From: Smithellaceae bacterium
Lineage (GTDB): Bacteria; Desulfobacterota; Syntrophia; Syntrophales; Smithellaceae
Assembly: GCA_028693285.1 (NCBI GenBank)
Contig: JAQUVQ010000005.1
Coordinates: forward strand, 19,160 to 83,159
Direction of reading: 5' to 3'
Length of the DNA stretch: 64,000 nt
Part shown: piece after piece, positions 23,421 through 62,220 of the stretch
How the letters are laid out: every line of letters starts with the position of its first letter
Numbering within the stretch: position 1 is the stretch's first letter
Notes under the pieces: generated by a model
Database searches by the model: none
The model's input: the letters and a program-made list of their open reading frames with translations, nothing else
Told to the model about the DNA's origin: nothing
Position numbers and translations under genes: made by a program

Positions 23421-23431
23421 AAGGAGGCGTC

Positions 23432-24676: not shown

Positions 24677-24768
24677 AGTTCAGCGGTTCAATACGGAAGA
24701 CGAACGACAGGGAACGGCTGGAAACCGCTTTCCGCAGGAGATAATCGGCGAAATACAAGATACGGGAA

Positions 24769-35836: not shown

Positions 35837-35904
35837 AAGGATCAGAAACATCATGGACGCAGGTTTTCGGCTTATTGGTTACGGGAATCATTTTGAAGGT
35901 TTCT

Positions 35905-36456
35905 ATGCTGTTAAAAGGCTGCTTACACACCCACACAACCTGTTCGGACGGAAAATTATCCCCGCAGGAAGTTGCGGATGCTTATGAGTCAAAAGGCTAT
36001 GATTTCATTGCCTTTACGGATCATGATTACCTTTTGAAGCCAAACTATCTGGAGACTTACGGCCGGGTCAGGACAAGCATGATGGTTTTCTACGGCATAG
36101 AGCTTTCGGTTTTTGTCAACGGAAACATTCATGTGGCAAAAATTGAAGGCGACCGGGAGCAGCTCCATGTCTTCAATCACATCAGCGAGTATGATTTCAC
36201 ACCCCAGCAGCTGATCGTGCGTCTGCGGCAGCTCGAAAAAATGTATCCCCTGGATGCGGTGGAAATCACGAAGAAAGGATTCCGCGATTCGGTTTTTGAA
36301 GCGCTCGATCTTCCCTATCCCAAAATCGCCTCCGATGACTCGCACACACTGACGGGGATTGGCCGGGCGTGGGTAGAGTTGGATGCGAAGAGGGAAAAGG
36401 ATTCCATTATTCACGCGATCCGGCACGGTGAATTCTGGAACTGTTACCTGAGTTGA
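35905..36456 (+). CDS. PHP-domain (polymerase/histidinol-phosphatase-like) metal-dependent phosphoesterase
   Basis: The likely start is ATG 35905 (the track lists TTG 35875). It has the PHP motif LHTHTTCSDG and a second motif FTDHD. Confidence 0.7.
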   Translation: MLLKGCLHTHTTCSDGKLSPQEVADAYESKGYDFIAFTDHDYLLKPNYLETYGRVRTSMMVFYGIELSVFVNGNIHVAKIEGDREQLHVFNHISEYDFTPQQLIVRLRQLEKMYPLDAVEITKKGFRDSVFEALDLPYPKIASDDSHTLTGIGRAWVELDAKREKDSIIHAIRHGEFWNCYLS

Positions 36457-36538: not shown

Positions 36539-37684
36539 ATGGGAAAAAGATTGGCGGTCTGCGCAGTGGCGCAGATTAAAAACCATCCGGATTATCATGA
36601 TTGGCGTTTTCAAAACATGCTGCTCGAATGTTTCGAACCGATCGTGGAGGAGACAAAGGTGACCTTCGACATGGACAAGGGCATCCGGACGATCATCACC
36701 TGCTCGGACGACATGTTCGATGCCCGGACCATATCCGACAACGGGATTACGGATGTCGTCGGGGCGCATTTTCGCGGCGAGGAAAAGATGGCACAGGAAA
36801 GCATCAATGGCCTCGGATACGCCATGGCCTGCATTCTCTCCGGCCATGACGACGTGATCCTTTTTATGGGCCACTGCAAGGAGTCGCAGGGGGAAAGCCG
36901 CAGGATGATTTCCAATCTTGCCTATGATCCCTTCTACTGCAGACCGCTGGGCATGGACTACCACAACGTGGACGCGCTGCAGGCCCGCGCTTACATGGAA
37001 AAATCAAAGGTGACGGACGAGCATCTGGCAAAAGTGGTGGTCCGCTCCAGAGCGAACGGCAAAAAAAATCCCTATGGCCGCGAAAACAAAATCGTCAGTG
37101 AAAAAGACGTGCTGAATTCACCGATGTACTCGGATCCCCTCCGGGAAATGCACATCTATCCGGTCACCGACTGGGCCTACGGAATGCTTTTGTGCAGTGA
37201 AAAGCGGGCCAAGGAGTTCACCAAGAAACCCGTCTGGATCACAGGATACGGCAGCTGCATGGACCGGTATTTCCTCGGCGACCGCGACATCGCTTCGAAT
37301 TTTTCGCTCAAGAACGCCGCCAAGCGGGCGTACGCCATGGCCGGCATTAAAGATCCCCGAAAAGACGTCCAGGTTTTTGAACTGAGCGATCAAGCTGCAC
37401 ATCAGCTCCCGATGTGGGCCGAAGGCGTCGGCATCGCGGAAGAAGGACGGGGCGGCCAGTGGATCGACGATGGCGGCATGGAACGGTTCAATGTCAACCT
37501 GTCCGGCGGCCAGCTCAACGGCAATCCGCTTCTTCTGGGCGGCGCGGCCAGGGCTCTGGAATGCTACTACCAGTTGTCGGGGCAGGCAGGCAAGCGGCAG
37601 GTCAAGGGTGCAAAACGGGCAGTTGCCCAGGCGGCGACCGGCGGGGCCGGGCAGCATCAGGCCGTCATCGTCATGGAAGCGTAG
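36539..37684 (+). CDS. SCPx/DitF-type thiolase-like protein, catalytically degenerate (pair 1, subunit A)
   Basis: GGAAGGAGG upstream of ATG 36539. The thiolase-like fold text is paralogous to 45835-46980. By-eye alignment gives Ala at the nucleophile Cys position and GNP instead of GHP. Confidence 0.8.
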   Translation: MGKRLAVCAVAQIKNHPDYHDWRFQNMLLECFEPIVEETKVTFDMDKGIRTIITCSDDMFDARTISDNGITDVVGAHFRGEEKMAQESINGLGYAMACILSGHDDVILFMGHCKESQGESRRMISNLAYDPFYCRPLGMDYHNVDALQARAYMEKSKVTDEHLAKVVVRSRANGKKNPYGRENKIVSEKDVLNSPMYSDPLREMHIYPVTDWAYGMLLCSEKRAKEFTKKPVWITGYGSCMDRYFLGDRDIASNFSLKNAAKRAYAMAGIKDPRKDVQVFELSDQAAHQLPMWAEGVGIAEEGRGGQWIDDGGMERFNVNLSGGQLNGNPLLLGGAARALECYYQLSGQAGKRQVKGAKRAVAQAATGGAGQHQAVIVMEA

Positions 37685-37696
37685 GGAGGTTGAATC

Positions 37697-38896
37697 ATGG
37701 CACATCAAAAGAAAAACAGAAATGTTGGAATTATCGGCATCGGTCAGACCAAACATTCCAGTCACCGCGAGGATGTCAACCAGCCTGAATTGATCCATGA
37801 AGCGGTCAGCCTGGCCCTGAAAGACGCGAACCTCACCATGAAAGACATTGACTGCGTGGTTCACGGCAATATGGAGCTTTTTGAAATGGTCCACTCGCCG
37901 GATCTCTGGCACGTGCTGGGAACCGGCGCCTACGGCAAGGACTCGATCCGGATCACTACCGGCGGGACGGTCGGGGCCACTCTGTCGTGCGCCTCGGACA
38001 ATCTGGTGGCGTCGGGAATGTACGACATCGTCATGGCCATCGGATTTGAAAAGCTTCAGGAGGGGCACACCACGGGCGGCATCACCAACATGGCCTGCCC
38101 GCTGTGGTTCAGGAAAATTCAGGCGGGAGCGCTCACCGGCTCCTCGGCCTATGACGTGGAGCGGGAATTCGGCCTGGAGCGGGCGGATCGCGCATCGCTC
38201 ATGTACCGGATCATCATGGACAAGCACGCAAGCCTCAATCCCAACGCCCACCGGGCATTCGGCCTGGACTTCAGCCAGATCGACGATCTGATCCGGACTT
38301 CGCCGAAGCTTGTCGGCGAACTGAAGCTCATCGAAATGTGCTCGCAGTCGGACGGCGCCTGCTGCGTGATCTACGCGTGCGAGAAAAAGGCGAAAGAGCT
38401 GTCCAAAATTCCGGTCTGGATCCGCGACCATATCACCGTCCACAAGGAAGAGAACTTCACGATCTTCGGCTACGACCGGAAATATCCGGTGCTGAAAACG
38501 CATAAATTCGCGGCCGAGCAGCTTTTCAAACGCAACGGCATCAATGACCCTTTGAATTATTTTGACGTGTTCGAAATGTATGATCCCGCGACCTGGTGGG
38601 CCATCGACTGGATTCGGGACTTCTTCAATCTGCAGGGGGACGAGCACCTCAGACTCATCGAGGAAAAGGAGATCATGATCGGCGGCAAGATGCCCATCAA
38701 TCCGTCCGGCGGCGTGATCGGATCCAATCCGATCGGCGCGACGGCGCTGGTCCGGGTGGCCGAGGCGGCCCTGCAGGTGCGCGGCAATGCCGGCCCGCAC
38801 CAGATTCCCACCCCGGTCAATCATGCACTCGCGTCAGGGTTTGGCGGCACCATGTGGACCGTGATGACAATGCTCGAAAAGGAACTTAACTGGTAG
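37697..38896 (+). CDS. SCPx-type thiolase-like protein, catalytically degenerate (pair 1, subunit B)
   Basis: The text IGIGQTKHS..., TTGGTVGAT...AIGFEKL and INPSGGVIGSNPIGATA shows SCPx-thiolase family spacing, but with Gly for the nucleophile Cys and Asn for His. Confidence 0.85.
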   Translation: MAHQKKNRNVGIIGIGQTKHSSHREDVNQPELIHEAVSLALKDANLTMKDIDCVVHGNMELFEMVHSPDLWHVLGTGAYGKDSIRITTGGTVGATLSCASDNLVASGMYDIVMAIGFEKLQEGHTTGGITNMACPLWFRKIQAGALTGSSAYDVEREFGLERADRASLMYRIIMDKHASLNPNAHRAFGLDFSQIDDLIRTSPKLVGELKLIEMCSQSDGACCVIYACEKKAKELSKIPVWIRDHITVHKEENFTIFGYDRKYPVLKTHKFAAEQLFKRNGINDPLNYFDVFEMYDPATWWAIDWIRDFFNLQGDEHLRLIEEKEIMIGGKMPINPSGGVIGSNPIGATALVRVAEAALQVRGNAGPHQIPTPVNHALASGFGGTMWTVMTMLEKELNW

Positions 38897-38906
38897 GAGG
38901 ACGATC

Positions 38907-40097
38907 ATGGCAGAATACTGGGGAGTAAAGGTAGAAGATATATTCAATACGATGAAAGACCGGTTCCGCCCCGAAGGCGCCAAGGATGTCGATGCGGTTT
39001 TCGGCTATGACATCGCCGGGGAAGGCAAATGGAAGCTGACGGTAAAGAACAATGCGATGACGCTCGAAAAGGCGGATCAATTATCCGGCTGCATCGCAAC
39101 CATGTCGGCCGACGGCGAGACCTTTGTCGGTGTCAACACGGGCAAAGTCGATGCGACCAACGCCTTTATGAGCGGAAAATTCAAGGTGGAAGGCGACATG
39201 GGCGCCTTCGGAAAGACCGGGAAACTTTTCCGCAAATTCGTCCTCGCCAAAAAGGAGATGACGACCAAAGAGTATCTTGCGGACATGTTCGCCACCATCG
39301 TGCCCCGCTTTAAGGCCAGGGAGGCCGAAGGGCTCGAAGCTTCCTTCGGTTTCGATCTCGGCGGACCGGACGGCGGCAAGTGGACCGTCTTTATTAAGGA
39401 TAAGGTCTGCACGGTTACGGAAACAATTGAAGGCAAGCCGACGGTTACGCTGGAATTCAACGACGCCAGGGATTACGTTGATTTCATCCTTGGAAAGATC
39501 GACGCGCAGAGCATCCTGGCCGCGGGAAAAGCGTCCGCGAAGGGCGATATCAACATGATGGCGTCGAAATGGCCGATCCTGTTTGAGAAATACAAAGATC
39601 CCATGGCCGGCGCTGTTCAGGAACAGGAACTGCTGGTGCTCAAAAAGACCATATCGTTGAACGAGAAGTTTTCAACCGGCCCCATCATGGGCAAGTTCCT
39701 CAAGGGCCTGAAAGAGAAAAAAATATTCGCGAATCGATGCCCCGAGTGCGGCCGGCTGCAGTTGCCGCCGCGGGAAGTGTGCGCGGAATGCCGCGTGCGC
39801 GCCGGTGAGTTCGTGGAGGTCGGGCCCAAGGGGGAAGTCCGATATATGGACGTGGTCTATTACGCCATGCCTGATCCCCTGACCGGCGTGGCCCGGGAAA
39901 CCCCGTATGGCTCCATCTTTATCCGACTGGATGGCTGCAAGGGCAACGAGACCCTGCCGCACTTTATCCGGAAGGATCAGATCGAAAAGATTCAGAGGGG
40001 CTGGAATGAAAAGAAAGGGACCCGCGTCCGCCCCGTCTGGGAGGAAAAACGGATCGGAGACATCTGGGACATTAAATACTTTGAGATTGATGAGTAA
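38907..40097 (+). CDS. SCP2 - SCP2 - DUF35 (Zn-ribbon/OB-fold) fusion protein
   Basis: There are two SCP2-like repeats (AVFGYDIAGEGKWKL...NAFMSGKFKVEGDMGAFGK and ASFGFDLGGPDGGKWTV...AAGKASAKGDINMMAS). They are followed by a DUF35 module with CPECG-N10-CAEC and an OB-fold tail (YGSIFIRLDG). Confidence 0.8.
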   Translation: MAEYWGVKVEDIFNTMKDRFRPEGAKDVDAVFGYDIAGEGKWKLTVKNNAMTLEKADQLSGCIATMSADGETFVGVNTGKVDATNAFMSGKFKVEGDMGAFGKTGKLFRKFVLAKKEMTTKEYLADMFATIVPRFKAREAEGLEASFGFDLGGPDGGKWTVFIKDKVCTVTETIEGKPTVTLEFNDARDYVDFILGKIDAQSILAAGKASAKGDINMMASKWPILFEKYKDPMAGAVQEQELLVLKKTISLNEKFSTGPIMGKFLKGLKEKKIFANRCPECGRLQLPPREVCAECRVRAGEFVEVGPKGEVRYMDVVYYAMPDPLTGVARETPYGSIFIRLDGCKGNETLPHFIRKDQIEKIQRGWNEKKGTRVRPVWEEKRIGDIWDIKYFEIDE

Positions 40098-40108
40098 GGA
40101 GAAGCGAT

Positions 40109-41536
40109 ATGACAACCAAAAAGACCGCAGGAGTCGAAGACAGCTATCAAATCGAAGGCAAAATGGCGCTCCCTTATTCTTACTTTGCCGGCCGGGTGGG
40201 CAGCAAATTCATTACGACCCTCCGGGATCAGAAGAAAATCATGGGAGTGAAATGCCCCGCCTGCAATACGGTCTATGTGCCGCCGCGGCAGGTCTGCGAC
40301 GTGGACTTTACCGATATTCGCGACGCGTGGGTTGAATTGGAAAGCACGGGCACGGTGAAGAATTTCACGGTCGTGCGTTATGACGACAAGCATCTGCCGA
40401 GAAAGGCGCCGTTTGTCCTGGCCCTCATTCAACTGGAGGGGGCCGGCACGCCGTTTGCGCACATTCTGGAGGAGTGCAAAATCGAAGACGTCAGGATCGG
40501 AATGAAGGTCGAGGCGGTATTCGCGAAGGAAACGACCCAAACCATTCTTGATATCGATCACTTCAAACCCGCGGCGGAAAAGGCGTCGATTCATGAGGTG
40601 AACGCGCGCAGGAAACAATGGGTTCCGACCGATGAACCCGCCGAAGCATCAACCAGAAAAGGAGGGAAGCCCGATATGTCCAAGCCCGTTATTATTACCG
40701 CGGCGCTCACCGGCGCCGCTACGATGAGAAATCAGAACCCGTCCGTACCCTACAAACCGGAGGAATTCGCGGAAGAAGCCTACAAGTGCTGGAAAGCCGG
40801 CGCCGCGATGGTGCATGTGCATGCCCGGGAAGACGGAGGAATGGCCACCCATGACCACGCGAGGATCAAGGCGACCTATGATGCCATCAAGGATAAGTGT
40901 CCGGAACTCATCGTCTGTCTGAGCTCCGCCGTCGGCATGGGCAAGACCGCCGAGCAGCGGATCTCCCAGATTGTCTATATCAAACCCGACATGGCCTCGC
41001 TCAACACCAACACCATGAACTTCGGCATCGTGGACCGCAAAACCGGCAAGATCTTCATCGACTATGTGTTTGAAAACACTTTCGGCATGCTGCAGGACTT
41101 CGGCAAAGTTATGGAAGAAAACGGCGTGAAGCCGGAAATCGAGTGCTACGACATGGGCGGTCTGGACAATACCCTCATGATCGGCAAGCAGGGCATTTTC
41201 AGCGATCCGATGAACTTCAATTTCGTCTGGGGCGTCGCCGGCGGGCAGCAGTTCAGGACCGAAGCCTTCATCGCCATGATGAACGCGCTTCCCCCGAAGG
41301 CGAACTTCACCACCTGCGGCGTCGGGATGGATCAGTATCCCTGCATCATGCAGTCCTGCATTCTCGGCGGGCACATGAGAGTCGGTCTGGAGGACAACAT
41401 CCGGATGCCCAACGGGGCGCTGGCCAAGGGGAGTTACGAGCAGGTGGAGGTGGCGGTGAACATCGCCAACTGTCTGGGACGCCCGGTGGCGACCACGGAC
41501 GAGGCTCGTCTCATTATGGGGCTCAGGAAGCGGTAA
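40109..41536 (+). CDS. DUF35 (Zn-ribbon/OB-fold) - BKACE (beta-keto acid cleavage enzyme, DUF849) fusion protein
   Basis: The N-terminal DUF35 has CPACN...VCDVD and APFVLALIQLEG. From about aa 190 the text is BKACE (PVIITAALTGAAT, AAMVHVHARED, ECYDMGG, GGHMRVGLEDN). Confidence 0.8.
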   Translation: MTTKKTAGVEDSYQIEGKMALPYSYFAGRVGSKFITTLRDQKKIMGVKCPACNTVYVPPRQVCDVDFTDIRDAWVELESTGTVKNFTVVRYDDKHLPRKAPFVLALIQLEGAGTPFAHILEECKIEDVRIGMKVEAVFAKETTQTILDIDHFKPAAEKASIHEVNARRKQWVPTDEPAEASTRKGGKPDMSKPVIITAALTGAATMRNQNPSVPYKPEEFAEEAYKCWKAGAAMVHVHAREDGGMATHDHARIKATYDAIKDKCPELIVCLSSAVGMGKTAEQRISQIVYIKPDMASLNTNTMNFGIVDRKTGKIFIDYVFENTFGMLQDFGKVMEENGVKPEIECYDMGGLDNTLMIGKQGIFSDPMNFNFVWGVAGGQQFRTEAFIAMMNALPPKANFTTCGVGMDQYPCIMQSCILGGHMRVGLEDNIRMPNGALAKGSYEQVEVAVNIANCLGRPVATTDEARLIMGLRKR

Positions 41537-41546
41537 AAAAACGGGT

Positions 41547-41587
41547 GGTTCGCCGCGGATGCCGGACAAGGGCGCCTGCGGCGAACC
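41547..41587 (+). other. Intercistronic stem-loop (10-bp perfect GC-rich stem, 21-nt loop)
   Basis: GGTTCGCCGC (41547-41556) pairs with GCGGCGAACC (41578-41587). It lies between the BKACE fusion and the ligase gene and has no U-tract. Confidence 0.5.
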
Positions 41588-41615
41588 GCTCTGGATCGAT
41601 TCGGGAGAACGCGCA

Positions 41616-43466
41616 ATGAAAATCGCAGAAAAAACCATGAACGACGTTTTTAGGAACCGCGTTCAAAAATATCAAGACCGTCTTGCCGTTGAAAAAAAGA
41701 TGAACGGCGTGTGGCACACCGCCACCTGGAACGAATACTACGAGCGGTCGCGCGCCGTCGGCATGGGGCTGTATGCCCTGGGGATTCGCAAAGGAGACAT
41801 GGTGTCCATTCTGTCCGAAAACCGGCTGGAATGGATCTACACCGACATGGGCGCGCTGGGAATCGGCGCCTGCGTGATTCCGATCTATCCGACGCTGACG
41901 GCCGAGGAGATCGAGTACATCCTCAATAATTCCGAATCAAAGGTTATTGTGACGGAAGACCGCGGCCAGCTCAAAAAAGTGCTGGCCGTCATTGAGAGGT
42001 GCCCCGGCATTGAAAAGATCGTCGTGATGGAGGAAAAGGACGCTCAGGGGCATCCCGGCGTGATGAGCTTTACGGCGCTGATGGAACTGGGAAGGAAAAA
42101 GCATGCCGAAGACCCTTCCCTTTTTGAGAAGCTCTCCCGGGAAGTGACGGTCGATGATCTGGCTACTCTCGTATATACGTCCGGTACGACCGGCTTGCCC
42201 AAGGGCGCCATGATCAGCCACGGGAACGTTTTCTGGATTGTGAAATCCCTGGACGCGGTCCAGCCTCCGTTTGCCGACGATCAGGACGTGCTGGTTGCCT
42301 TTCTTCCCCTCTCCCACGTGTTTCAGCGGATTCCCGGACATTTTTATGCCATGCACCGCGGGATCACCATCTCCTATGCCCAGTCGATCGACACGCTTCT
42401 GACGGACTTCGAAGAAAAGAGGCCGACCATGATTCTGGCCGTTCCGCGCGTGTGTGAAAAAGTGTACCAGAAGATCATTACGCAGGTGAAGGAACAGTCC
42501 CCTTTCAAGCAGAAGGTGTTTTACTGGGGGCAGTGTGTCGGCAACCGGATCAGCGAACTTCGCGAGAATCACAAGCCCATTCCGCCGGGGCTCAGACTGA
42601 AATACAAAATCGCCTATGCCGTCATCTTTAAAAAGCTCCAGCAGAAGCTGGGCGGACGGTTGAAATGGATGACGGCTGCCGGCGCGCCCACGGCGCCGGA
42701 AATTATCCGGTTCTTCAACGCCGCCGGAATTACGGTCATTCAGGGATACGGCATGACCGAAACGACGGCGCCGGCGTCCATCCAGTCCCTGTCCGATTTT
42801 CGCATCGGCACGACCGGCAAGCCGATGCCCGGCCAGGACATCAGGATCGCCGAAGACGGAGAGATTCTGATCAAGGGCGGAAATGTCATGAAGGGATACT
42901 GGAAGCTGCCGGAGGAAACCCGCGCCGTATTCACGCCGGACGGTTACCTGATGTCGGGCGACATCGGGAAGTTCGACGAGGAAGGCAATCTCCTCATCAC
43001 GGACCGCAAGAAGGATCTTCTCATCACCTCAGGAGGCAAAAACATCGCTCCGCAGATGATCGAAGGGCTGTTCAAGTCCGATCCGCTGTTTACCCAGTTT
43101 ATCGTGATCGGTGAAAGGAAAAAATACCTGACTGGATTGTGCAACATCGATCTGGAGATTGCCGCGATGATCGCCGACGATGAAAAGATCCCCTATCAGA
43201 AACCGGCGGACCTGCTGGACAACGACCGCTTCCTGGCGATTGTCAGAAACCATGTCGAGGAGCGCAACACGCATCTGGCCAAGTACGAAACCATCAAGGA
43301 TTACCGGATCATCAAAACGGATTTTTCCCAGGAGGGCGGCGAACTGACGGCGACGCTCAAACTGAAGCGCAAGGTGATTAATGAGAAGTACCAGGATCTG
43401 ATTGACGAGATGTACGGGAAGGAAGCGGTCGATGAGCTTTACGGGCAAAAGCAGTCCCGGGCGTGA
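41616..43466 (+). CDS. Long-chain acyl-CoA synthetase (AMP-forming, FadD/ACSL-like)
   Basis: The likely start is ATG 41616 (MKIAEKTMNDVF). It has the AMP-binding motif YTSGTTGLPKGA, GYGMTET, and C-terminal TDRKKDLLITSGGKNIAP. Confidence 0.9.
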   Translation: MKIAEKTMNDVFRNRVQKYQDRLAVEKKMNGVWHTATWNEYYERSRAVGMGLYALGIRKGDMVSILSENRLEWIYTDMGALGIGACVIPIYPTLTAEEIEYILNNSESKVIVTEDRGQLKKVLAVIERCPGIEKIVVMEEKDAQGHPGVMSFTALMELGRKKHAEDPSLFEKLSREVTVDDLATLVYTSGTTGLPKGAMISHGNVFWIVKSLDAVQPPFADDQDVLVAFLPLSHVFQRIPGHFYAMHRGITISYAQSIDTLLTDFEEKRPTMILAVPRVCEKVYQKIITQVKEQSPFKQKVFYWGQCVGNRISELRENHKPIPPGLRLKYKIAYAVIFKKLQQKLGGRLKWMTAAGAPTAPEIIRFFNAAGITVIQGYGMTETTAPASIQSLSDFRIGTTGKPMPGQDIRIAEDGEILIKGGNVMKGYWKLPEETRAVFTPDGYLMSGDIGKFDEEGNLLITDRKKDLLITSGGKNIAPQMIEGLFKSDPLFTQFIVIGERKKYLTGLCNIDLEIAAMIADDEKIPYQKPADLLDNDRFLAIVRNHVEERNTHLAKYETIKDYRIIKTDFSQEGGELTATLKLKRKVINEKYQDLIDEMYGKEAVDELYGQKQSRA

Positions 43467-43510
43467 GCCGGCGCGATGATTAAAAACCTTAGTCAGGAAG
43501 GTGGAGAACT

Positions 43511-44506
43511 ATGAATAAGGCAGTGGAATTGAAGCAGGGGCAGAATCAGCTTTTCTCTGATCCGAATGCGGACAAAGCGAGGGAGTTTTTCCGCAATAAA
43601 TCACGCGCCATGGTCAACAAAGTCACCACGGTGGACGAAGCGGTGAAAAGACTGGTCAAAGACGGCGACTATATCGCCATCGGCGGATTCGGCGCCAACC
43701 GCATCCCGACTGCGGTGCTTCATGAGATTGCCCGCCAGGGAAAGAAAAATCTGGCGTTTGCCGGCCACACCGCCACGCACGACATGCAGATTCTGGTCGG
43801 CGGGGAATGCATTGACCGCCTGGATATCGCCTACGTCATCGGTCTGGAGGCGCGCGGCCTTTCCCCCAACGCGCGCCGCGCGGTGGAGAGCGGGAAAATC
43901 AAGCTCACGGAATGGACGAACGCGACCCTCTCCTGGCGGATCAAAGCTGCGGCCATGGGGCTTTCCTTTCTTCCGGCGCGCAATATCATGGGAACCGATA
44001 CGTTCAAGTACAGTGCGGCCAAGGAAATTCTCTGTCCTTTCACCGGACAGAAATTTGCCGCCTTCCCGGCCCTGTATCCGGATTTCGCGGCCATCCATGT
44101 CCATGAGTGCGACGTTTACGGGAACGCGCACGTTTTCGGATCGACCGTGTCGGACCAGGATTTGGCCAAAGCGTCCAAACGCGTCGTGATCACCACGGAG
44201 CGGATCATCTCCAACGATGAGATCCGGCGGCAGCCGACGGCTACCTTCATTCCGTTCTGGTGCGTGGACGCGGTCGTGGAAGTGCCCTACGGCAGCTATC
44301 CCGGAAATATGCCCTACGAGTATTTTTCCGACGAAGAGCATATCCGGCAGTGGCTCAAAATCGAACGCGATCCCGAAGAGTTCCGGAAATTTTTCAAACG
44401 GCAGATTCTGGACACGAAAAATTTCTACGAATACCTGGAGCTCAACGGAGGCATCGCGAGAATGCTGAAGCTGCGCGCCATCGAGCATCTGACGCATAAT
44501 CGATAA
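43511..44506 (+). CDS. Class I CoA-transferase subunit A (glutaconate CoA-transferase GctA-like)
   Basis: 331 aa. The text DGDYIAIGGFGANRIP fits the family, and it is paired with a B subunit 11 nt downstream. Confidence 0.8.
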   Translation: MNKAVELKQGQNQLFSDPNADKAREFFRNKSRAMVNKVTTVDEAVKRLVKDGDYIAIGGFGANRIPTAVLHEIARQGKKNLAFAGHTATHDMQILVGGECIDRLDIAYVIGLEARGLSPNARRAVESGKIKLTEWTNATLSWRIKAAAMGLSFLPARNIMGTDTFKYSAAKEILCPFTGQKFAAFPALYPDFAAIHVHECDVYGNAHVFGSTVSDQDLAKASKRVVITTERIISNDEIRRQPTATFIPFWCVDAVVEVPYGSYPGNMPYEYFSDEEHIRQWLKIERDPEEFRKFFKRQILDTKNFYEYLELNGGIARMLKLRAIEHLTHNR

Positions 44507-44517
44507 GGAGGAGGAAT

Positions 44518-45288
44518 ATGGCGGACTTCAATGCAATGGAACTGATGATCTGCGTGGCCGCGCGGAACCTGGAGGACGGCGCGACCGTCGTCGTGGGAAC
44601 GGGCGCGCCCTGCGCCGCGGCGATGCTGTCGCAGAAAACGCACTCGCCCAATCTTACCATCATGTTTGAAGCCGGCGGCGTCGCGCCGATTCTGCCGTCC
44701 ATGCCGATCTCGGTGGGGGATTCGCGGACGTTTCACAAGGCCATTCTGGCCAGCTCCATGCCGGACATTATGGAAACCTGTCAGCGCGGCATGGTGGACT
44801 ACACCTTTCTGGGCGGCGCGCAGATCGATATGTACGGAAACATCAATTCCACCATGATCGGCACCAATCACGCGAAGCCGAAAGTGCGGTTCCCGGGATC
44901 CGGCGGCGCCAACGATCTGGCCTCCCTGTGCTGGCGGACCATGGTGATGACGCCGCAGGATTCCAAGCGCTTCACGGACAAGATCGATTTCATTACGTCC
45001 CCGGGATATCTGAGCGGCGGGAATTCGCGCTATGAGGCGGGGCTTCCCAAGGGAACCGGCCCCTACCGGATCATTACCAATATGGCGATCATGGGCTTTG
45101 ACGACACGTCCAAGCGGATGAAGGTGCTGAACATCAACCCCGGATACAACCGGACGGATATCCAGGACAACTGCGGCTTTGAACTTCTCTGGGCCGACCG
45201 GATCACGGAGACGGAGCCGCCCCGTGAAGACGAACTGCGGATTCTCCGCGAGGAAGTGGATCCGCACCGGTATATCATAGGAAGATAG
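44518..45288 (+). CDS. Class I CoA-transferase subunit B (GctB-like)
   Basis: 256 aa. Its text includes VVVGTGAPCAAAML and IMFEAGGV. The Glu in IMFEAGGV is in the context of the catalytic Glu of family I transferases. Confidence 0.8.
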   Translation: MADFNAMELMICVAARNLEDGATVVVGTGAPCAAAMLSQKTHSPNLTIMFEAGGVAPILPSMPISVGDSRTFHKAILASSMPDIMETCQRGMVDYTFLGGAQIDMYGNINSTMIGTNHAKPKVRFPGSGGANDLASLCWRTMVMTPQDSKRFTDKIDFITSPGYLSGGNSRYEAGLPKGTGPYRIITNMAIMGFDDTSKRMKVLNINPGYNRTDIQDNCGFELLWADRITETEPPREDELRILREEVDPHRYIIGR

Positions 45289-45350
45289 GCCAATTCATCT
45301 GCTCCTCCCGCGGCGCCCGCGGGGGTGGCAAAACCCTTAGGAGAAAAATC

Positions 45351-45818
45351 ATGTCCGATCAATTTCAAGGCATTGAGCCGATGGTTTACCAAAGCCAGAT
45401 CAACGTTCCCTATTCCTGGTGGGCAGGGGACACGGCGACCCGGTTTTTTGTGACGCTGCGCGATGAAAAGAAAATCACCGCGACCAAATGCGGCGACTGC
45501 GGAAAGGTATTGCTGCCTCCGCGCAAGATTTGTCCGCGCTGCTTCACCGAAAACATGGAATGGGTGAAGGTGTCCGATGAAGGGACCCTGCTCACGTTTG
45601 CGGTGGCGGGGCGGCCGTTCGCCGCCATTCCCGCGGATAAAAAGGTTCCAGTGATCTGGGGGCTGATTCAACTCGACGGCGCCGATACCGCCCTGCTGCA
45701 TTATCTGGACGGCGTCAGGCCCGAGGAAGTGAGCATCGGCATGCGCGTCCGGGCGGTGTACTCCGAGGTGCGCAAAGGCACCATCCGCGACATTTCGCAT
45801 TTCAAACCGGTTAAATAG
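45351..45818 (+). CDS. DUF35 Zn-ribbon/OB-fold protein (acyl-CoA-associated)
   Basis: 155 aa. It has CGDCG-N10-CPRC followed by an OB-fold (IWGLIQLDGADT..., IGMRVRAVY). Confidence 0.85.
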   Translation: MSDQFQGIEPMVYQSQINVPYSWWAGDTATRFFVTLRDEKKITATKCGDCGKVLLPPRKICPRCFTENMEWVKVSDEGTLLTFAVAGRPFAAIPADKKVPVIWGLIQLDGADTALLHYLDGVRPEEVSIGMRVRAVYSEVRKGTIRDISHFKPVK

Positions 45819-45834
45819 GGAAGGAGCCACAGCT

Positions 45835-46980
45835 ATGGACAGAGCAGCGATCATCGGCGTCGGAATGACGAAAATTGAAAAAAGAAAGATCAGCCAGACC
45901 TTTGCCGACATGGCGTGGGAGGCCGTGAACAAGGCCCTCACCGACGCGGGGATGACCCTCGACGACATCGACAACGTGGTGACCACCTCCAGCGACTTCT
46001 GGGACGGCCGGACGATTTCCTGCATGGCCGTGGGGGACGCCAGCGGCGCGGCCCACAAAAACATCTCCTGCGTCGAGGGCGACGGCACCTACGGCGCTTT
46101 TTACGGCATGACGAGGGCTCTTTCCGGCTCCTACCGGACCACCCTGGTGACGGGGCATACGAAAGGTTCCGAGAGCGTGTCGAGTCTCATTACCAACGCA
46201 GCCTTTGATCCCATCTACGAGCGGAGTCTGGGCATGGACATGATCACCGCCTGCGCGATGCAGGCGCGATCCTACATGCACCGCACAAAAACGACCGCCG
46301 AACAGTTGGCCCTGGTTTCCGTGAAGAACCACGGCAACGCGCTTAAAAATCCGCTGGCGCAGCTTCCCATGAAAATCACCGTCGAGGATGTTCTGAAATC
46401 TGAAATGGTCGCGGATCCGCTTCACAAGCTGGACTGCTCTCCGGTATCCGACGGATGCGCGGCGGTCATCATCGCCCACGAATCGGTGGCGGAAAAGTTC
46501 CGGCAGAAGCCGGTCTGGGTGCGCGGCGTGTCCTTCTGCGCGGACAGCTTCTTCTTTGGAGACCGGGACCTCTCCCGCGCCCGTTCGCTTGCCCAGGCGG
46601 CCAGGAAGGCCTACGCGATGGCCGGCGTCCACGACCCGAAAAAGGAAATCGATGTCGCGGAAGTCTCCGACGCTTTTACCTATCAGGAGCTTCTGTGGCT
46701 GGAGGAAATGGGGCTTGCCGACGACGCGGCGGCTGGAAAACGGCTGGAGCGGGGAGAGTTCAACCTCGACGGCCCGCTGCCGGTGAACGCCTCCGGCGGA
46801 CTGCTTTCCGGGCATCCCGTCATCGCCGCCGGCCTCTACAGCATGGCCGCGGTGGTCCGGCAGATTCGGGGAGACGCGGGCGGTTTTCAGGTGCAAAAAG
46901 CGAAAACCGGCCTGGTGCAGGGTGTCAACGGGCTGGGCGGCCAGTCCCACTGTGTGTGGATTCTGGACAAGGACAAGTAG
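45835..46980 (+). CDS. SCPx-type thiolase-like protein retaining Cys and GHP (pair 2, subunit A)
   Basis: Paralog of 36539-37684. It has NISCVEGDG at the nucleophile region and GGLLSGHPV near the C-terminus. Confidence 0.85.
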   Translation: MDRAAIIGVGMTKIEKRKISQTFADMAWEAVNKALTDAGMTLDDIDNVVTTSSDFWDGRTISCMAVGDASGAAHKNISCVEGDGTYGAFYGMTRALSGSYRTTLVTGHTKGSESVSSLITNAAFDPIYERSLGMDMITACAMQARSYMHRTKTTAEQLALVSVKNHGNALKNPLAQLPMKITVEDVLKSEMVADPLHKLDCSPVSDGCAAVIIAHESVAEKFRQKPVWVRGVSFCADSFFFGDRDLSRARSLAQAARKAYAMAGVHDPKKEIDVAEVSDAFTYQELLWLEEMGLADDAAAGKRLERGEFNLDGPLPVNASGGLLSGHPVIAAGLYSMAAVVRQIRGDAGGFQVQKAKTGLVQGVNGLGGQSHCVWILDKDK

Positions 46981-46991
46981 GAGGACAAACC

Positions 46992-48149
46992 ATGGCGAAA
47001 CGAGTTGCAATTGTAGGAACCGGACAGACCTTCCATAAGAGCCATCGCCCCGACGTCAACGGACAGGAGCTGATCCATGAGGCAGTTGCCCGTGCGCTGG
47101 CGGACGCCGACCTGAAGCTGAAGGACATCGACGCCGTCGTCATCGGGAACATGGATCATTTTGAGGGGATCAACTACGTGGACTGCTGGAGCGTGGACGG
47201 TTCCGGCGGGACGATGAAGCCCATTATCAAGCTGACCACCGGCGGAACCACCGGCTGCACCGTCGCCATCGGCGGATATCATCTGGTCGGCTCGGGAATG
47301 TTCGACCGAGTGCTGATCATCGGCTGGGAAAAGAACTCCGAATCGGACACGACCGGCGCCATCACCACGGCTTTTGATCCCATCTGGGACCGCCTGGTCT
47401 TCGCCGGCGCAATATCGGGTCTGGCGGCGGAGGCGCAGGCTTACATGGCCCGCTACGGCGCGACGGACCGCGACGGCGCCCGGGTGAGCGTGCGCGACCG
47501 GAAACATGCGATGAACAATCCGCACGCGCAGCTTCGAAAGGAAGTGAGCCTGGAAGAAGTGCTGGCTTCCCCGATGCTGGCGGACCCGATCCATCTTTTG
47601 GACGTTTGCCCCCGCTCCGACGGCGCGTGCGCGGTCATCATGGCCAGTGAAGACATCGCCGAAAAGATCTGCCCGAAACCGGACTGGATCTGGGGCACGG
47701 CTGCGCGCCACTCCTACAGCTACCTGGGCGACGCCGATTACGGCCGCCTGACCAGCATGCGCGAAGGATCGCAGGAACTCTGGAAGAAGGCGGGCATCAA
47801 AGAGCCGCGCAAAGAACTGGATGTTGTCGAGATGTACCAGCCCTATTCGTTCGGCGGTTTGATCTGGATCGAGGACATGGGCCTGGTGGGCCCCGGCGAG
47901 GCGCCGCGGTATATCTGGGACGGCAACACCGACATGGGCGGCGAACTGCCGATCAATCCGTCGGGCGGCGTGATTTCCTGCAATCCCATCGGGGCGACCG
48001 GGCTGATCCGCTGCGCGGAAGCGGCCATGCAGGTGATGGGCAAAGCCGAAGGCCGGCAGGTTCCGGACGTCAACTTTGCCTTCAGCAGCGGTTTCGGCGG
48101 CTGCTGGTGGACCGATATGATTCTGCACGGAAAGAAAAAACCGGCCTGA
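46992..48149 (+). CDS. SCPx-type thiolase-like protein, catalytically degenerate (pair 2, subunit B)
   Basis: GGAGG upstream of ATG 46992 (the track ORF 46455-48149 has a spurious N-extension). It is a paralog of 37697-38896, with TTGGTTGCT...IIGWEKN and INPSGGVISCNPIGATG. Confidence 0.85.
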   Translation: MAKRVAIVGTGQTFHKSHRPDVNGQELIHEAVARALADADLKLKDIDAVVIGNMDHFEGINYVDCWSVDGSGGTMKPIIKLTTGGTTGCTVAIGGYHLVGSGMFDRVLIIGWEKNSESDTTGAITTAFDPIWDRLVFAGAISGLAAEAQAYMARYGATDRDGARVSVRDRKHAMNNPHAQLRKEVSLEEVLASPMLADPIHLLDVCPRSDGACAVIMASEDIAEKICPKPDWIWGTAARHSYSYLGDADYGRLTSMREGSQELWKKAGIKEPRKELDVVEMYQPYSFGGLIWIEDMGLVGPGEAPRYIWDGNTDMGGELPINPSGGVISCNPIGATGLIRCAEAAMQVMGKAEGRQVPDVNFAFSSGFGGCWWTDMILHGKKKPA

Positions 48150-48169
48150 AGCAACAAGGAGGAACCAGC

Positions 48170-48634
48170 ATGGCGGAAAAAGAAAACATCATTATCGAAT
48201 CGGGCGACGCGGTTCAGCCCTTCGCGTATTCCGTGGGCATGCACGGAAGCAGGTTTTTTGCGGAGATTCGCGACCATAAGCGGTTTCTGGGGATCAAGTG
48301 CCCCAAATGCGGGAAGGTGTATATTCCGCCGCGCGGCGTCTGCGGAGACTGCTTTGTCGAGATGAAAGACTGGGTCGAAGTCGGGCCGAAAGGGGTCATC
48401 GGCACCTTTACGATTCTTCGCTACGCGTTTATCGACCCGGAAACGGGCGCGCAGAAGCCGGTCCCCTATGGCTACGGGTTTATCAGGTTTGACGGCGCCG
48501 ACACCCTGTTCCAGCACTACATCAACATTGAGGATGAAGCGAAGATTCGCGTGGGCGCCCGCGTGGAGCCGGTATTTGCCGGAGAGCGAAAGGGCAGCAT
48601 TCGGGATATTGAGTATTTTCGGGTCATCGACTGA
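48170..48634 (+). CDS. DUF35 Zn-ribbon/OB-fold protein
   Basis: AAGGAGG upstream of ATG 48170. It has CPKCG-N10-CGDC followed by an OB-fold (YGYGFIRFDGADT, VGARVEPVF). Confidence 0.85.
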   Translation: MAEKENIIIESGDAVQPFAYSVGMHGSRFFAEIRDHKRFLGIKCPKCGKVYIPPRGVCGDCFVEMKDWVEVGPKGVIGTFTILRYAFIDPETGAQKPVPYGYGFIRFDGADTLFQHYINIEDEAKIRVGARVEPVFAGERKGSIRDIEYFRVID

Positions 48635-49536
48635 TGGCCGCAAAGGAGTCGCCGACGGTTGAGATCAATCCATTCAAGCGGATTCTGAAGATGCCGGGGG
48701 CTCTGTGCGGGGGAATCAGCACCGGCAGCGATAAAATCCGCAGCGGATACGGCAACGGGGACTGCCTTTACTTTGATTTTGAGCACCTGGTCTTCGCCGT
48801 GGCGGACGGCACGGAACGCTTCCCCTGGGCGTCGAGGGATCTTTTGCAGCGGCTGTCGGAGAGGCTTTTGCGGTCCGGTTCCCCGGAAACGGCCCGGGAT
48901 TGGAAGGACATGATGAACACCGGGGTCTATGACGGCCAGAAGTACCAGCATAAGACGACCTTCAGCGCCGTCGCCCTTCGCCGTGAAGGAGAGGATGTTT
49001 TTCTGATCATCGCGAACGGAGGCGACAGCGTCGTAACGGTCATGGATGGCCTTACGGGAAAGATTCGCCGTCAGACGGGGCGCAACATGGATTTTGCGGG
49101 AAGAAGCAGGCAGATTGTGGATGTGACGGAGCACCGGATGCCGGACCGGGACCACCGGGTGCTTCTTTCCACGGACGGGTTCGATGATGTCTGGCGCTTC
49201 TATCTGCGCCGGTCGCCCGCCGGCTCCGCGCGCGGCGTTCTCGAAAGGGTTGGGCTGGACGGAATCGGCGAGGTGATTTCCGGGCTTCTGGAAGAGCACC
49301 GGGACCGTTTTGAGTATGATGATGTCGGCTTTATTCTTCTGGATCCGGGCGCGGTGAAGCCGGTGAAGGGAAAAGCTCTGATCATGGGAGGAACGCGGCC
49401 TTTTGAAGAAAATCGCTACCGGCTGCAGTATACACCGGAGGCGCATGACCGGTGGATCCCCGATGCCGAGTGGGCCGGACAGGAGGAAATGCTTGACGGC
49501 GCGGGAATCCGGGTGCTGAACACGGTGCGGTGCTGA
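48634..49536 (+). CDS. Divergent PP2C/SpoIIE-like phosphatase-fold protein
   Basis: The ATG shares its A (48634) with the upstream TGA stop. It has PP2C-like motif order: FAVADGTE, TTFSAVAL...LIIANGGDSVV, LLSTDGFDDV, YDDVGFILLD. Confidence 0.55.
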   Translation: MAAKESPTVEINPFKRILKMPGALCGGISTGSDKIRSGYGNGDCLYFDFEHLVFAVADGTERFPWASRDLLQRLSERLLRSGSPETARDWKDMMNTGVYDGQKYQHKTTFSAVALRREGEDVFLIIANGGDSVVTVMDGLTGKIRRQTGRNMDFAGRSRQIVDVTEHRMPDRDHRVLLSTDGFDDVWRFYLRRSPAGSARGVLERVGLDGIGEVISGLLEEHRDRFEYDDVGFILLDPGAVKPVKGKALIMGGTRPFEENRYRLQYTPEAHDRWIPDAEWAGQEEMLDGAGIRVLNTVRC

Positions 49537-49554: not shown

Positions 49555-50187
49555 ATGCAAGAAAGTGTTGCAGAAGAGATGAATGAGCGGAACAAAAATG
49601 ATTTGCTGAATCTGAGGCGGTCCCAACTGACGGCGGCGGCGTACAAAGTGGTTGCGCAGAAGGGGTACAACGATTTCACCATCAAGGATATCGCCGAGGA
49701 AGCCGGCCTGTCCACGGGCCTGGTCCACTACTACTTCAAAAACAAGGAAGATCTTCTTTTCAAGCTGCTCAAGGAGATGAACGCCAATCTTCGGGACAAT
49801 CTGAAAAAGGCCATGGGGGAGCTTGCCGAACCCAGGGATAAACTGATGGCTTTCTGCGACGAAGCCTTTGCGCTGGTGGACCGGGAAAAGGCGTATTTTT
49901 ACGTGCTCATCGATTTTTGGGCGCAGATCAATCACGATGCCAGGATTCGCCAGGCGAACGTCAAACTTTTTCAGAGCTACCGCGCCGAGATCGCGGCGAT
50001 CATTCAGGAAGGGGCGGCCAAAGGCGTTTTCACCGTGGAGGACGTGAACCTGACGTCCGTGATCATCATCGCGCTCATTCAGGGAACCATCATCCAGTAC
50101 GCGATTGATCGCGAGGCGTTCAATTACAGCGAGATCAAGGAGAAAATCAAGGAGCAGATTCTCTCCAGAATCGTCAACGGAAAATAA
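49555..50187 (+). CDS. TetR/AcrR-family transcriptional regulator
   Basis: 210 aa. It has the N-terminal HTH text GYNDFTIKDIAEEAGLSTGLVHYYFKNKEDLL. Confidence 0.9.
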   Translation: MQESVAEEMNERNKNDLLNLRRSQLTAAAYKVVAQKGYNDFTIKDIAEEAGLSTGLVHYYFKNKEDLLFKLLKEMNANLRDNLKKAMGELAEPRDKLMAFCDEAFALVDREKAYFYVLIDFWAQINHDARIRQANVKLFQSYRAEIAAIIQEGAAKGVFTVEDVNLTSVIIIALIQGTIIQYAIDREAFNYSEIKEKIKEQILSRIVNGK

Positions 50188-51358: not shown

Positions 51359-51408
51359 CCTCAGGCCGGAAGCAGAATAACCAGACATCCATTGAAGGAG
51401 AATATGCC

Positions 51409-52581: not shown

Positions 52582-52642
52582 CCGTTCAGACGAAGGCGCG
52601 CGCTTTCCGACCGGAGACATGACGCTGCAAGGAGAAAGACCC

Positions 52643-53080: not shown

Positions 53081-53090
53081 GAGGCACGCC

Positions 53091-62215: not shown

Positions 62216-62220
62216 TTCCG

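Follow-up and report, generated by a model that had tools for sequence, protein, structure and literature searches.

Cysteine-less thiolase-fold pairs and their DUF35 modules in a conserved operon of Smithellaceae: putative heteromeric retro-aldolases coupled to BKACE

Introduction

What does a thiolase-fold protein do once the catalytic cysteines of a thiolase are gone, and why are four such proteins kept in one operon together with four DUF35 modules? This question is raised by a stretch of 64,000 nucleotides (nt) from a Smithellaceae bacterium (assembly GCA_028693285.1, contig JAQUVQ010000005.1, positions 19,160 to 83,159 of the forward strand), which we call the window and from whose first letter all coordinates are counted. 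Two cassettes of four genes each encode here thiolase-fold subunits of two types (A and B in cassette 1, A2 and B2 in cassette 2) and DUF35 modules. In cassette 2 the DUF35 proteins D3 and D4 are free, whereas in cassette 1 the modules are parts of fusions, SSD (SCP2-SCP2-DUF35) and DBK (DUF35-BKACE). The reading that we favour, with a probability of roughly 0.55, is that the cassettes encode DUF35-scaffolded heteromeric retro-aldolases within a modified beta-oxidation operon, coupled to BKACE.

DUF35 proteins dock on thiolase-fold dimers, one per protomer in the Sal-Shy complex, and they can bring a neighbouring enzyme with them: a MaoC hydratase in the cases of ChsH2 and Shy, HMG-CoA synthase or reductase and a dehydratase in archaea. 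SCP2-DUF35 fusions were already listed in 2010. A literature search combining DUF35 with BKACE, DUF849, Smithella and Syntrophus returned no description of the present operon or of a DUF35-BKACE fusion, and the NetSyn study of BKACE genomic contexts mentions neither thiolase nor DUF35. The DUF35-BKACE fusion is the new element here.

The genes of the two cassettes are the following.

36539-37684, + strand: A, thiolase-fold subunit of cassette 1, 381 aa (Pfam Thiolase_C_1, E 1e-22)
37697-38896, + strand: B, thiolase-fold subunit of cassette 1, 399 aa (Pfam Thiolase_C_1; alignment to 6hsj)
38579-38590, + strand: YDPA codons in B, at the position equivalent to the HDCF motif
38907-40097, + strand: SSD, SCP2-SCP2-DUF35 fusion, 396 aa (two Pfam SCP2 domains and zf-ChsH2), made of SCP2-1 (38907-39260), SCP2-2 (39261-39614) and a beta-type DUF35 module (39615-40094) with a Cys4 ribbon (39738-39791)
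40109-41536, + strand: DBK, DUF35-BKACE fusion, 475 aa (Pfam zf-ChsH2, OB_ChsH2_C and BKACE), made of an alpha-type DUF35 module (40109-40573) with the ribbon CPAC..VCDVD (40253-40306), a linker (40574-40678) and the BKACE domain (40679-41533)
45351-45818, + strand: D3, free alpha-type DUF35 of cassette 2, 155 aa, Cys4 ribbon at 45489-45542 (Pfam)
45835-46980, + strand: A2, A-type thiolase-fold subunit of cassette 2, 381 aa, motif at 46666-46677 (alignment to 6esq)
46992-48149, + strand: B2, B-type thiolase-fold subunit of cassette 2, 385 aa, YQPY at 47835-47846 (alignment to 6hsj)
48170-48634, + strand: D4, free beta-type DUF35 of cassette 2, 154 aa, Cys4 ribbon at 48299-48352 (Pfam; ribosome-binding site)

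All eight reading frames start where a preliminary description, made from the sequence alone, had placed them. Each is preceded by a ribosome-binding site of the GGAGG type, and the same starts are called independently on near-identical contigs.

Results

A thiolase fold without the residues of a thiolase

The preliminary description had called the four subunits SCPx-type. As far as the fold is concerned this is right: A, B, A2 and B2 all match Pfam Thiolase_C_1 (E 1e-20 to 1e-34), Thiolase_N is recognised as well, and PDB matches to 6hsj, 7yvy, 6esq and 4yzo go down to E 7e-48. The name fails for the chemistry, the nucleophilic Cys and the Cys of the HDCF motif being both absent. The nucleophile position is occupied by Gly in B, B2 and A2 and by Ser in A (TTGGT or VEGDG vs NNNCS or VEAAC). 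Aligned with the SCP2-thiolase 6hsj, B displays Gly90 at the nucleophile, Y295-D-P-A at HDCF and Asn344 at the His of the GHP motif; B2 displays Gly, YQPY (Tyr282) and CNP at the same three places. Counted from the motif, the GHP-His position lies at +50 in 6hsj and at +49 in both B and B2. In A the corresponding residues are Ser, SDQA and GNP. Compared with 6esq, A2 has VEGDGTYG at VEAACASG and SDAF at HDCF, and it is the only one of the four to retain the GHP His, where A, B and B2 have Asn.

A scan of one genome per species gave 290 related loci, the loci were annotated by BLASTP against the window proteins, and residue conservation was counted over 52-67 non-identical orthologs per family. 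The Gly at the nucleophile position is 96-100% conserved. In B, the Gly, Tyr, Pro and Asn are each found in 100% of the 67 orthologs, and so is the Asp between Tyr and Pro; the Gly, Tyr, Pro and Asn are also 100% conserved among B2 orthologs. The first motif residue of A, on the other hand, is hypervariable (S/C/D/M/K/N/T), and A2 reads YDAF in 43 of 52 orthologs, with Ser or Cys in the window lineage (SDAF in the window itself) and Cys or His in close relatives. The motif Tyr of A2 thus seems dispensable in Smithellaceae.

Since all orthologs lack both the nucleophilic Cys and the Cys of the HDCF motif, none of the four proteins is, as judged from its sequence, a thiolase, thiolysis not being possible without a Cys nucleophile. 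The idea that they would be genuine SCPx-type thiolases cleaving 3-oxoacyl-CoA thiolytically draws on the fold, on best PDB matches that are SCP2-thiolases and archaeal thiolases, and on the names of their homologs ('acetyl-CoA C-acetyltransferase' or 'thiolase family protein'). It is hardly credible in view of the lost cysteines in the four proteins and their orthologs and of a GHP His kept in A2 only. Moreover, all four stay below the cut-offs of the NCBIfam thiolase and lipid-transfer models, and the operon has a separate canonical thiolase at 55601-56854.

An aldolase-like signature in the B-type subunits

In two steroid side-chain aldolases, Sal and Ltp2, the former nucleophile position is taken by Gly and Tyr is the first residue of the HDCF-equivalent motif, which reads YDHF in Ltp2 (Tyr294 as base) and YDCY in Sal (Tyr302 as base); TbSLP has YDCF (PMC12329534). 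This combination of Gly and Tyr is found in B (Gly90, Tyr295), in B2 (Gly, Tyr282) and in most A2 orthologs; A and the A2 of the window lack it. In addition, the Asn of B and B2 at the GHP-His position resembles the inert Gln352 of Sal. We predict that B and B2 work like the characterised aldolases, yet belong to neither of the two types.

The signature is not confined to this operon. When B2 was compared with 1.84 billion cluster representatives, the nearest ~40 clusters carried Gly / Y-x-[P/A]-x / x-N-P, and true thiolases with Cys, HDCF and GHP appeared only from about rank 70. Ten distant clusters of B2 relatives bear automatic names only. By their motifs, the B2-like proteins with Gly/Y-x-[P/A]-x/N-P make up a broad family.

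One conserved and one diverged subunit in each pair

In every locus the B-type subunit of a pair exceeds its A-type partner in conservation, the mean identity to the window being 83.6% for B vs 75.6% for A and 73.2% for B2 vs 66.4% for A2. B is in fact the most conserved of the eight cassette proteins and comes second in the operon after subunit B of the CoA-transferase (87.3%). Owing to this conservation of B and B2, to the variable motif of A and to the replaceable Tyr of A2, each pair would consist of one catalytic and one degenerate subunit: the B type is probably catalytic and the A type a diverged, non-catalytic partner.

The A-B and A2-B2 genes are adjacent, with gaps of 11-12 nt, and are always found together across loci. 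The same two pairs give the strongest partial co-variation (0.53 for A-B, 0.49 for A2-B2) in a mirror-tree analysis that is exploratory, since its distances are not independent. An A-like + B-like + DUF35 layout is also found in distant relatives (loci L091-L094). From adjacency, co-occurrence, the ancient A/B split described below, these distant layouts and co-variation, we infer that A and B types form heterodimers.

Duplication of a four-gene module

Identities of 35% for A-A2, 42% for B-B2, 36% for A2-B2 and 21% for A-B do not on their own prove the kinship of A and A2. We therefore turned to a neighbour-joining tree (the method of all trees in this work) with orthologs from 22 loci, four PDB relatives as outgroups, their sequences rebuilt from printed alignments, and the canonical thiolase of the window as root. 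It groups A with A2 (bootstrap 99%), B with B2 (92%) and all four together (91%). The view that A/A2 and B/B2 are paralogs from a duplicated ancestral A-B pair, put forward in the preliminary description with phylogeny as the means to date the event, is borne out, and the A/B split predates the duplication of the cassettes.

The DUF35 modules tell a parallel story. They fall into four orthologous groups, and the tree separates the BKACE-fused module and D3 from the SCP2-fused module and D4 with a bootstrap of 88%. On this tree there are two DUF35 lineages, alpha (DBK module, D3) and beta (SSD module, D4), with one of each per cassette, so that the duplicated unit would have been a four-gene module composed of A, B and two DUF35. 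Both cassettes are ordered A-B-D-D in loci L081, L085, L087 and L095, which is probably the older arrangement. It had been proposed that every thiolase-fold subunit has its own DUF35. According to the DUF35 tree this is the ancestral state, kept in the operon; it is not general, a single DUF35 per pair being present in L091, L092 and L094. The gene order D3-A2-B2-D4 of cassette 2, together with weak co-variation, suggests that alpha DUF35 docks on the A type and beta DUF35 on the B type; partial co-variation fits three of the four such assignments.

DUF35 modules as probable adaptors with exchangeable cargo

D3 and D4 are complete DUF35 proteins, and Pfam OB_ChsH2_C is recognised in DBK, D3 and D4. 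SSD possesses the OB half as well: its C-terminal 160 residues align over the full length with D4 (34% identity, E 5e-31) and match 3irb and 6esq_E in the PDB. Its two SCP2 repeats are 28% identical to each other (E 3e-13). The complete Cys4 ribbon reported earlier for SSD, D3 and D4 is kept in all orthologs (82/82 for SSD). The ribbon of the BKACE fusion, previously described as degenerate, has to be reinterpreted: CPAC...VCDVD is a conserved Cys3Asp variant, CxxC...CxxD occurring in 71/85 orthologs and Cys4 in 14/85. A Cys3His variant has been published for Shy. Between the ribbon-bearing module and the highly conserved BKACE domain of DBK, the ortholog alignment shows a linker of ~35 residues which is poorly conserved and rich in indels, and which would fit a flexible tether.

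Comparison of loci lends support to the earlier proposal that the DUF35 modules carry cargo domains. The alpha DUF35 is fused to BKACE in 80 loci, and is free beside a free BKACE gene in L081, L085, L087 and L095. In locus L096 (Desulfobacterium sp. metagenome-assembled genome (MAG) GCA_016342325.1, 15247-16155) the alpha DUF35 ortholog (55% identity) forms a fusion with a MaoC domain whose hydratase motif is intact, and BKACE is the separate first gene of the operon. Since the same alpha DUF35 can carry a hydratase or BKACE, the step catalysed by the A/B pair would be placed between these two enzymes. The wider family also holds polypeptides of the types thiolase-fold+DUF35+DUF35 and thiolase-fold+SCP2+SCP2.

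Could both members of each pair then be pseudoenzymes, serving as structural platforms for BKACE, SCP2 and perhaps hydratases, with the cargo doing all the chemistry? Inactive thiolase-fold partners do exist, PhlA being one example; the alpha slot holds different enzymes in different lineages, and B and B2 each lack part of both known aldolase dyads (Tyr/Tyr of Ltp2, Tyr/Cys of Sal). We nevertheless regard this as quite unlikely: few proteins of the operon are as conserved as B and B2, whose polar residues at active-site positions (Tyr295, Asn344, His177, Cys215 and His249) are invariant, and the Gly/Y-x-P/N-P signature is kept in ~40 distant clusters. In cassette 2, moreover, where no cargo domain is present, such a platform would have nothing fused to organise.

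A conserved operon shared by distant bacteria

The arrangement is found again in 80 related MAG loci from several phyla, far beyond chance; the operon is real and strongly conserved. The best 80 loci are all from MAGs: Smithellaceae, Smithella and Syntrophaceae (96% identity to the window), many Spirochaetota or Leptospirales-like bins, Desulfomonilia, Thermodesulfobacteriota and one Bacteriovoracaceae bin. Full-length relatives of the DBK fusion are found down to ~60% identity. PHP-A-B-SSD-DBK, where PHP stands for a phosphoesterase-like gene directly upstream of A, is present in essentially all annotated loci. After DBK the usual order is an optional crotonase, a ligase and/or a CoA-transferase, D3-A2-B2-D4, the gene of a protein X, a TetR regulator and a pair of acyl-CoA dehydrogenases (ACAD). 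Ligase, CoA-transferase or both are found in every complete locus. The ACAD pair follows the unit in many loci, and the MaoC pair is kept downstream in several.

Three MAGs have a second locus with cassette 1 only (L052, L053, L088), composed of TetR, ligase, A, B, SSD, DBK and, directly following the cassette, the ACAD pair. Cassette 1 would thus be a functional module by itself. The PHP gene, which is directly upstream of A in nearly all full-length loci, is missing from these.

In some Spirochaetota MAGs (L031, L036, L037, L041; P0124, P0127) the operon proteins share 82-88% identity with their counterparts in the Smithellaceae window. Such values lie far beyond the expectation from the distance between phyla and suggest either recent lateral transfer of the whole operon or mis-binning. 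Another locus, L091 (JGI 3300035701 contig, 54 kb), which is distantly related, contains two A-like/B-like/DUF35 cassettes in divergent orientation; adjoining them are genes for a MaoC hydratase, a ligase, an ACAD and a BKACE that is not fused.

In the window (G+C ~57%), the cassettes belong to an unbroken run of + strand genes from 35.9 to 57.7 kb, with spacers of ~10-60 nt and one overlap of 1 nt. A scan of 35.5-55.5 kb for promoters and terminators gave counts not above those of shuffled controls, and no obvious internal terminator. Besides the cassettes, the run includes:

35875-36456, + strand: PHP-domain metal phosphoesterase-like protein, 193 aa (Pfam PHP/PHP_C), first conserved gene of the unit
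41559-43466, + strand: AMP-forming acyl-CoA ligase of long-chain type, 635 aa (Pfam AMP-binding and AMP-binding_C_3)
43511-44506, + strand: CoA-transferase subunit A, glutaconate-CoA-transferase-like, 331 aa (Pfam CoA_trans; PDB match 1poi_A)
44518-45288, + strand: CoA-transferase subunit B, glutaconate-CoA-transferase-like, 256 aa (PDB match 1poi_B)
48634-49536, + strand: X, protein of 300 aa whose start overlaps the D4 stop, PP2C/PPM-phosphatase-like predicted fold
49555-50187, + strand: TetR-family regulator (Pfam), position kept across loci
50207-52581, + strand: ACAD1 (50207-51358) and ACAD2 (51409-52581), adjacent acyl-CoA dehydrogenases (Pfam)
52619-53477, + strand: MaoCa (52619-53080) and MaoCb (~53091-53477), small hot-dog pair, HadA/HadB-like (Pfam, NCBIfam)
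55601-56854: canonical thiolase with all thiolase motifs present

Pfam places a third ACAD, this canonical thiolase and an SDR protein further downstream of the MaoC pair.

Enzymes that accompany the cassettes

The BKACE domain of DBK is full-length (PF05853, E 7e-91, profile positions 1-274 of 274). Its HxH...E metal site and RxGxED motif align with those of Kce (2y7d) and are invariant in 12 orthologs. It belongs to no characterised isofunctional subfamily among the four NCBIfam models compared, all of which score below their cut-offs (265.8 bits vs 382 for the best). The acyl-CoA ligase has its best NCBIfam match in the FadD11 type, below the cut-off. For the CoA-transferase, subunit A matches GctA best in the PDB (1poi_A, E 4e-43, vs ~1e-9 for 3-oxoacid transferases) and subunit B matches GctB (1poi_B, E 6e-45), the Glu of an E-x-G stretch being aligned. 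The hit lists also hold 5mzw and 6con, and relatives in this family have other activities. Such likeness to glutaconate CoA-transferase (Gct) would fit an intermediate of glutaryl or glutaconyl type.

ACAD1 has IGGGT and ACAD2 IGEGA at what we take, by eye, to be the position of MCAD Glu376 (Y-E-G-T), and ACAD1 has an Asp at what is presumably the base position of the IVD type. The two may form a heteromeric ACAD like ChsE1-ChsE2. Of the small hot-dog proteins, MaoCb has the hydratase motif GDFNPIH and MaoCa does not, a distribution compatible with a heteromeric (R)-hydratase arrangement like ChsH1-ChsH2.

Two further conserved proteins of the unit appear metal-phosphoesterase-like. The PHP protein keeps HxH and DHD motifs and has weak NCBIfam matches to 3',5'-bisphosphate nucleotidase and RNase RNM. 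X has no Pfam or NCBIfam match; its 197 homologs are all named hypothetical and nearly all apparently belong to this type of operon. It is present in most full loci, with conserved motifs containing Asp. Its AlphaFold2 model (mean pLDDT 87.7) gives PP2C phosphatases as the top Foldseek matches in the PDB without exception (E ~5e-8), and the predicted fold is PP2C/PPM phosphatase-like.

The direction in which the complexes run has to be considered here. TetR, ligase, CoA-transferase, ACAD pair, MaoC pair, canonical thiolase and SDR form together a catabolic context. A biosynthetic role, in which the complexes would build an unusual lipid by C-C formation of aldol or Claisen type, is not without precedent (archaeal thiolase/HMG-CoA synthase, DUF35 complexes of fatty acid synthases, PhlABC): DUF35 complexes are known to pull unfavourable condensations, SCP2 could hold a growing lipid, and the BKACE reaction is reversible. 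It is, however, very unlikely: the conserved unit has no reductase set, there is no Cys on which an acyl-enzyme could form, and the neighbours (TetR, AMP-ligase, CoA-transferase, three ACADs, hydratases, thiolase) are those of a catabolic pathway.

The accompanying enzymes also recall the igr cluster. The operon could be an igr/Sal-like module for the side chain of a steroid, hopanoid or polycyclic compound, its cassettes carrying out two aldol cleavages one after the other (first C5, then C3, in the manner of Sal and Ltp2 in Proteobacteria) and BKACE having a side role. Comamonas is known to use two DUF35-aldolase steps in succession, re-activating the acid in between, and here a ligase or transferase lies between the cassettes, ACAD and MaoC come in pairs as in igr, the tandem SCP2 domains are of sterol-carrier kind, a BaiCD-like flavoenzyme is encoded downstream and L096 has a Shy-like DUF35-MaoC protein. 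We consider this option unlikely: no steroid-ring genes are recognised in the window, the conserved unit has no aldehyde dehydrogenase, and the tight link with BKACE would be left unexplained. The hosts are syntrophs and uncultured spirochaetes without known steroid catabolism, and SCP2 binds many lipids.

Outside the run, the window contains at 58391-60469 (+ strand) an OYE/FadH-type Fe-S flavoenzyme, whose best NCBIfam match is the bile-acid protein BaiCD, below the cut-off, and at 61049-63468 (+ strand) two iron-type alcohol dehydrogenases. On the other side, at 22296-25536 (+ strand), there are two genes like the D component of 2-hydroxyglutaryl-CoA dehydratase (22.3-24.7 kb), the next open reading frame being possibly an activator; along with the Gct-like transferase they recall the hydroxyglutarate pathway. 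We rejected them as part of the system: they are not found beside the operon in other genomes.

Discussion

A route proposed for branched or bulky substrates

Taken as retro-aldolases, the two cassettes would give two paralogous complexes, each with a thiolase-fold heterodimer as its core and, bound to it, two distinct zinc-ribbon/OB proteins of the DUF35 family. Two SCP2 lipid-binding domains would be tethered by the beta DUF35 of cassette 1, and BKACE, via a flexible linker, by its alpha DUF35. Together the genes suggest that fatty-acid-like compounds with branched or bulky structures are broken down by a route not described so far. A hydrophobic carboxylic acid would be activated by the ligase or the CoA-transferase, then desaturated by the ACAD pair. 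Hydration by MaoC or crotonase would yield a 3-hydroxyacyl-CoA that is not oxidisable, its alcohol being tertiary or hindered, and the A/B complex would split it in a retro-aldol reaction into acetyl-CoA and a carbonyl product.

What the substrate might be can be suggested with low confidence only: one of the 3-hydroxy-3-alkylglutaryl-CoA type. Tertiary alcohols of 3-substituted glutaryl-CoA which need an aldol-type cleavage have been described in the anaerobic degradation of a terpene, limonene. Cleavage of such a compound would produce acetyl-CoA and a labile beta-keto acid, that is, both substrates of BKACE. The tethered BKACE would convert them into an acyl-CoA and acetoacetate, so that the thioester is saved and decarboxylation of the beta-keto acid avoided. 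This proposal would account for the tether, for the presence of a Gct-like transferase and for acetoacetate as a product.

Several observations weigh against the retro-aldolase reading or parts of it. First, the catalytic acids of Ltp2 and Sal are missing in B and B2, Pro standing for Cys304 of Sal and Asn for Tyr344 of Ltp2. By their residues, B and B2 thus depart from this part of what defines Ltp2 and Sal, and they may have a different chemistry. Four residues that are invariant in B and B2 and specific to them, His23, His177, Cys215 and His249 (B numbering), could be candidates for the missing acid. Second, structure prediction is of little help: the AlphaFold2 model of B made with 22 close orthologs is poor (mean pLDDT 63.7), and Foldseek on this poor model recovers the DUF35-associated SCP2-thiolase-like group with aldolases not ranked above thiolases. 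The alignment of A near the nucleophile loop is less certain than the others, phmmer having left the N-terminal third unaligned. Third, the trees are of neighbour-joining type only, and D4 co-variation does not favour B2 over A2. Finally, as to the substrate, the NCBIfam scan of all operon proteins reached no equivalog cut-off, hence no substrate is assigned in this way; the Gct-like transferase is missing from eight loci; a ligase of long-chain type and SCP2 domains would fit a monocarboxylic lipid equally well; and the 3-alkylglutaryl proposal leaves the second cassette unexplained.

A bolder version of the retro-aldolase reading is speculative, and we consider it unlikely. Cassette 1 would be a 'branch-bypass' machine of energy-limited anaerobes, a Cys-less heteromeric aldolase that splits a tertiary intermediate of the 3-hydroxy-3-alkylglutaryl-CoA type and passes both products directly to the DUF35-tethered BKACE while the tandem SCP2 domains hold the hydrophobic tail, and B would represent a third active-site solution (Gly/Tyr-x-Pro/Asn). 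If this were true, beta-branched, cyclic or isoprenoid-derived lipids could be degraded without ATP-dependent re-activation or carboxylation.

What the operon implies

Thousands of environmental proteins of this kind, none of which can be a thiolase, are annotated as acetyl-CoA acetyltransferase. When the metabolism of syntrophs and of digester spirochaetes is reconstructed, thiolases are thus over-counted and a step that probably cleaves C-C bonds is missed. The locus further offers a natural series, with the adaptor free or fused to BKACE, MaoC or SCP2, in which to study how DUF35 wires enzymes onto thiolase-fold cores, and also a heteromeric version of these cores with, as predicted, one active and one degenerate subunit. 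Should B prove to be an aldolase, its Gly/Tyr-x-Pro/Asn site would add a new kind of active site, of interest for biocatalytic C-C chemistry. Being common to Smithellaceae and Spirochaetota MAGs from digesters, groundwater and peat, with up to ~88% protein identity, the operon looks like a transferable trait, one that probably serves the breakdown of branched or bulky lipids in methanogenic settings, where little is known of such pathways.

Comparison with known systems

The closest parallels are the Ltp2-ChsH2/ChsH1 (6ok1) and Sal-Shy (9myr) complexes. They share with our cassettes the SCP2-thiolase-like fold, the replacement of Cys by Gly and, in B and B2, the Tyr in first position of the HDCF-equivalent motif. 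They share also a DUF35 partner, obligatory in those systems, which is able to carry a pathway enzyme, as illustrated by the MaoC fusion in the corresponding slot of L096. They differ in being homodimers with one kind of DUF35, whereas two diverged subunit types and two DUF35 lineages occur per unit here, and in their acid positions, with Tyr344 in Ltp2 and Cys304 in Sal where our proteins have Asn and Pro. The cargo is different too, BKACE and tandem SCP2; the hosts here are strict anaerobes, and no link to steroids is shown. With the igr cluster (ORF40-44) the operon has in common paired ACAD genes (a heteromeric dehydrogenase there), paired MaoC genes (a heteromeric hydratase there) and DUF35-associated thiolase-fold genes (a DUF35-aldolase there). 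Ltp3/Ltp4 with Rv3521 of actinobacteria, reportedly dealing with C24-branched sterol side chains, were considered as a heteromeric precedent and are not used here as support.

In PhlABC and MucABC (5m3k, 9vbo), too, one operon encodes a DUF35 protein and two distinct members of the thiolase superfamily, of which one is considered inactive; there the products assemble into one complex, as is predicted here. However, PhlC keeps its Cys and PhlA is KAS III/HMGS-like, whereas A and B lack the Cys and are sister SCP2-thiolase-like lineages. PhlABC is also biosynthetic, has one DUF35 per pair instead of two and catalyses an acyl transfer to phenols that is independent of CoA.

The archaeal complexes, for which a hand-over of CoA intermediates has been proposed, present the same principle of a DUF35 hub on a thiolase-fold dimer which recruits the next enzymes of the pathway. 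They contain true Cys thiolases, run in the condensing direction and recruit their partners non-covalently, in contrast to the fusions described here. BbsAB (7pxp) is comparable by its SCP2-thiolase-like and DUF35 subunits and by its setting, a modified beta-oxidation operon of anaerobes with CoA-transferase, ACAD, hydratase and SDR; yet BbsB is a real thiolase, and BbsAB has a single subunit type and a single DUF35. As for BKACE, the domain has the full TIM barrel with HxH...E and RxGxED of its family (Kce 2y7d; 3-oxoadipate and 3,5-dioxohexanoate BKACEs) and the association with a CoA-transferase encountered in lysine fermentation. It differs in falling below every NCBIfam equivalog cut-off and in being fused to, or adjoining, a DUF35 module.

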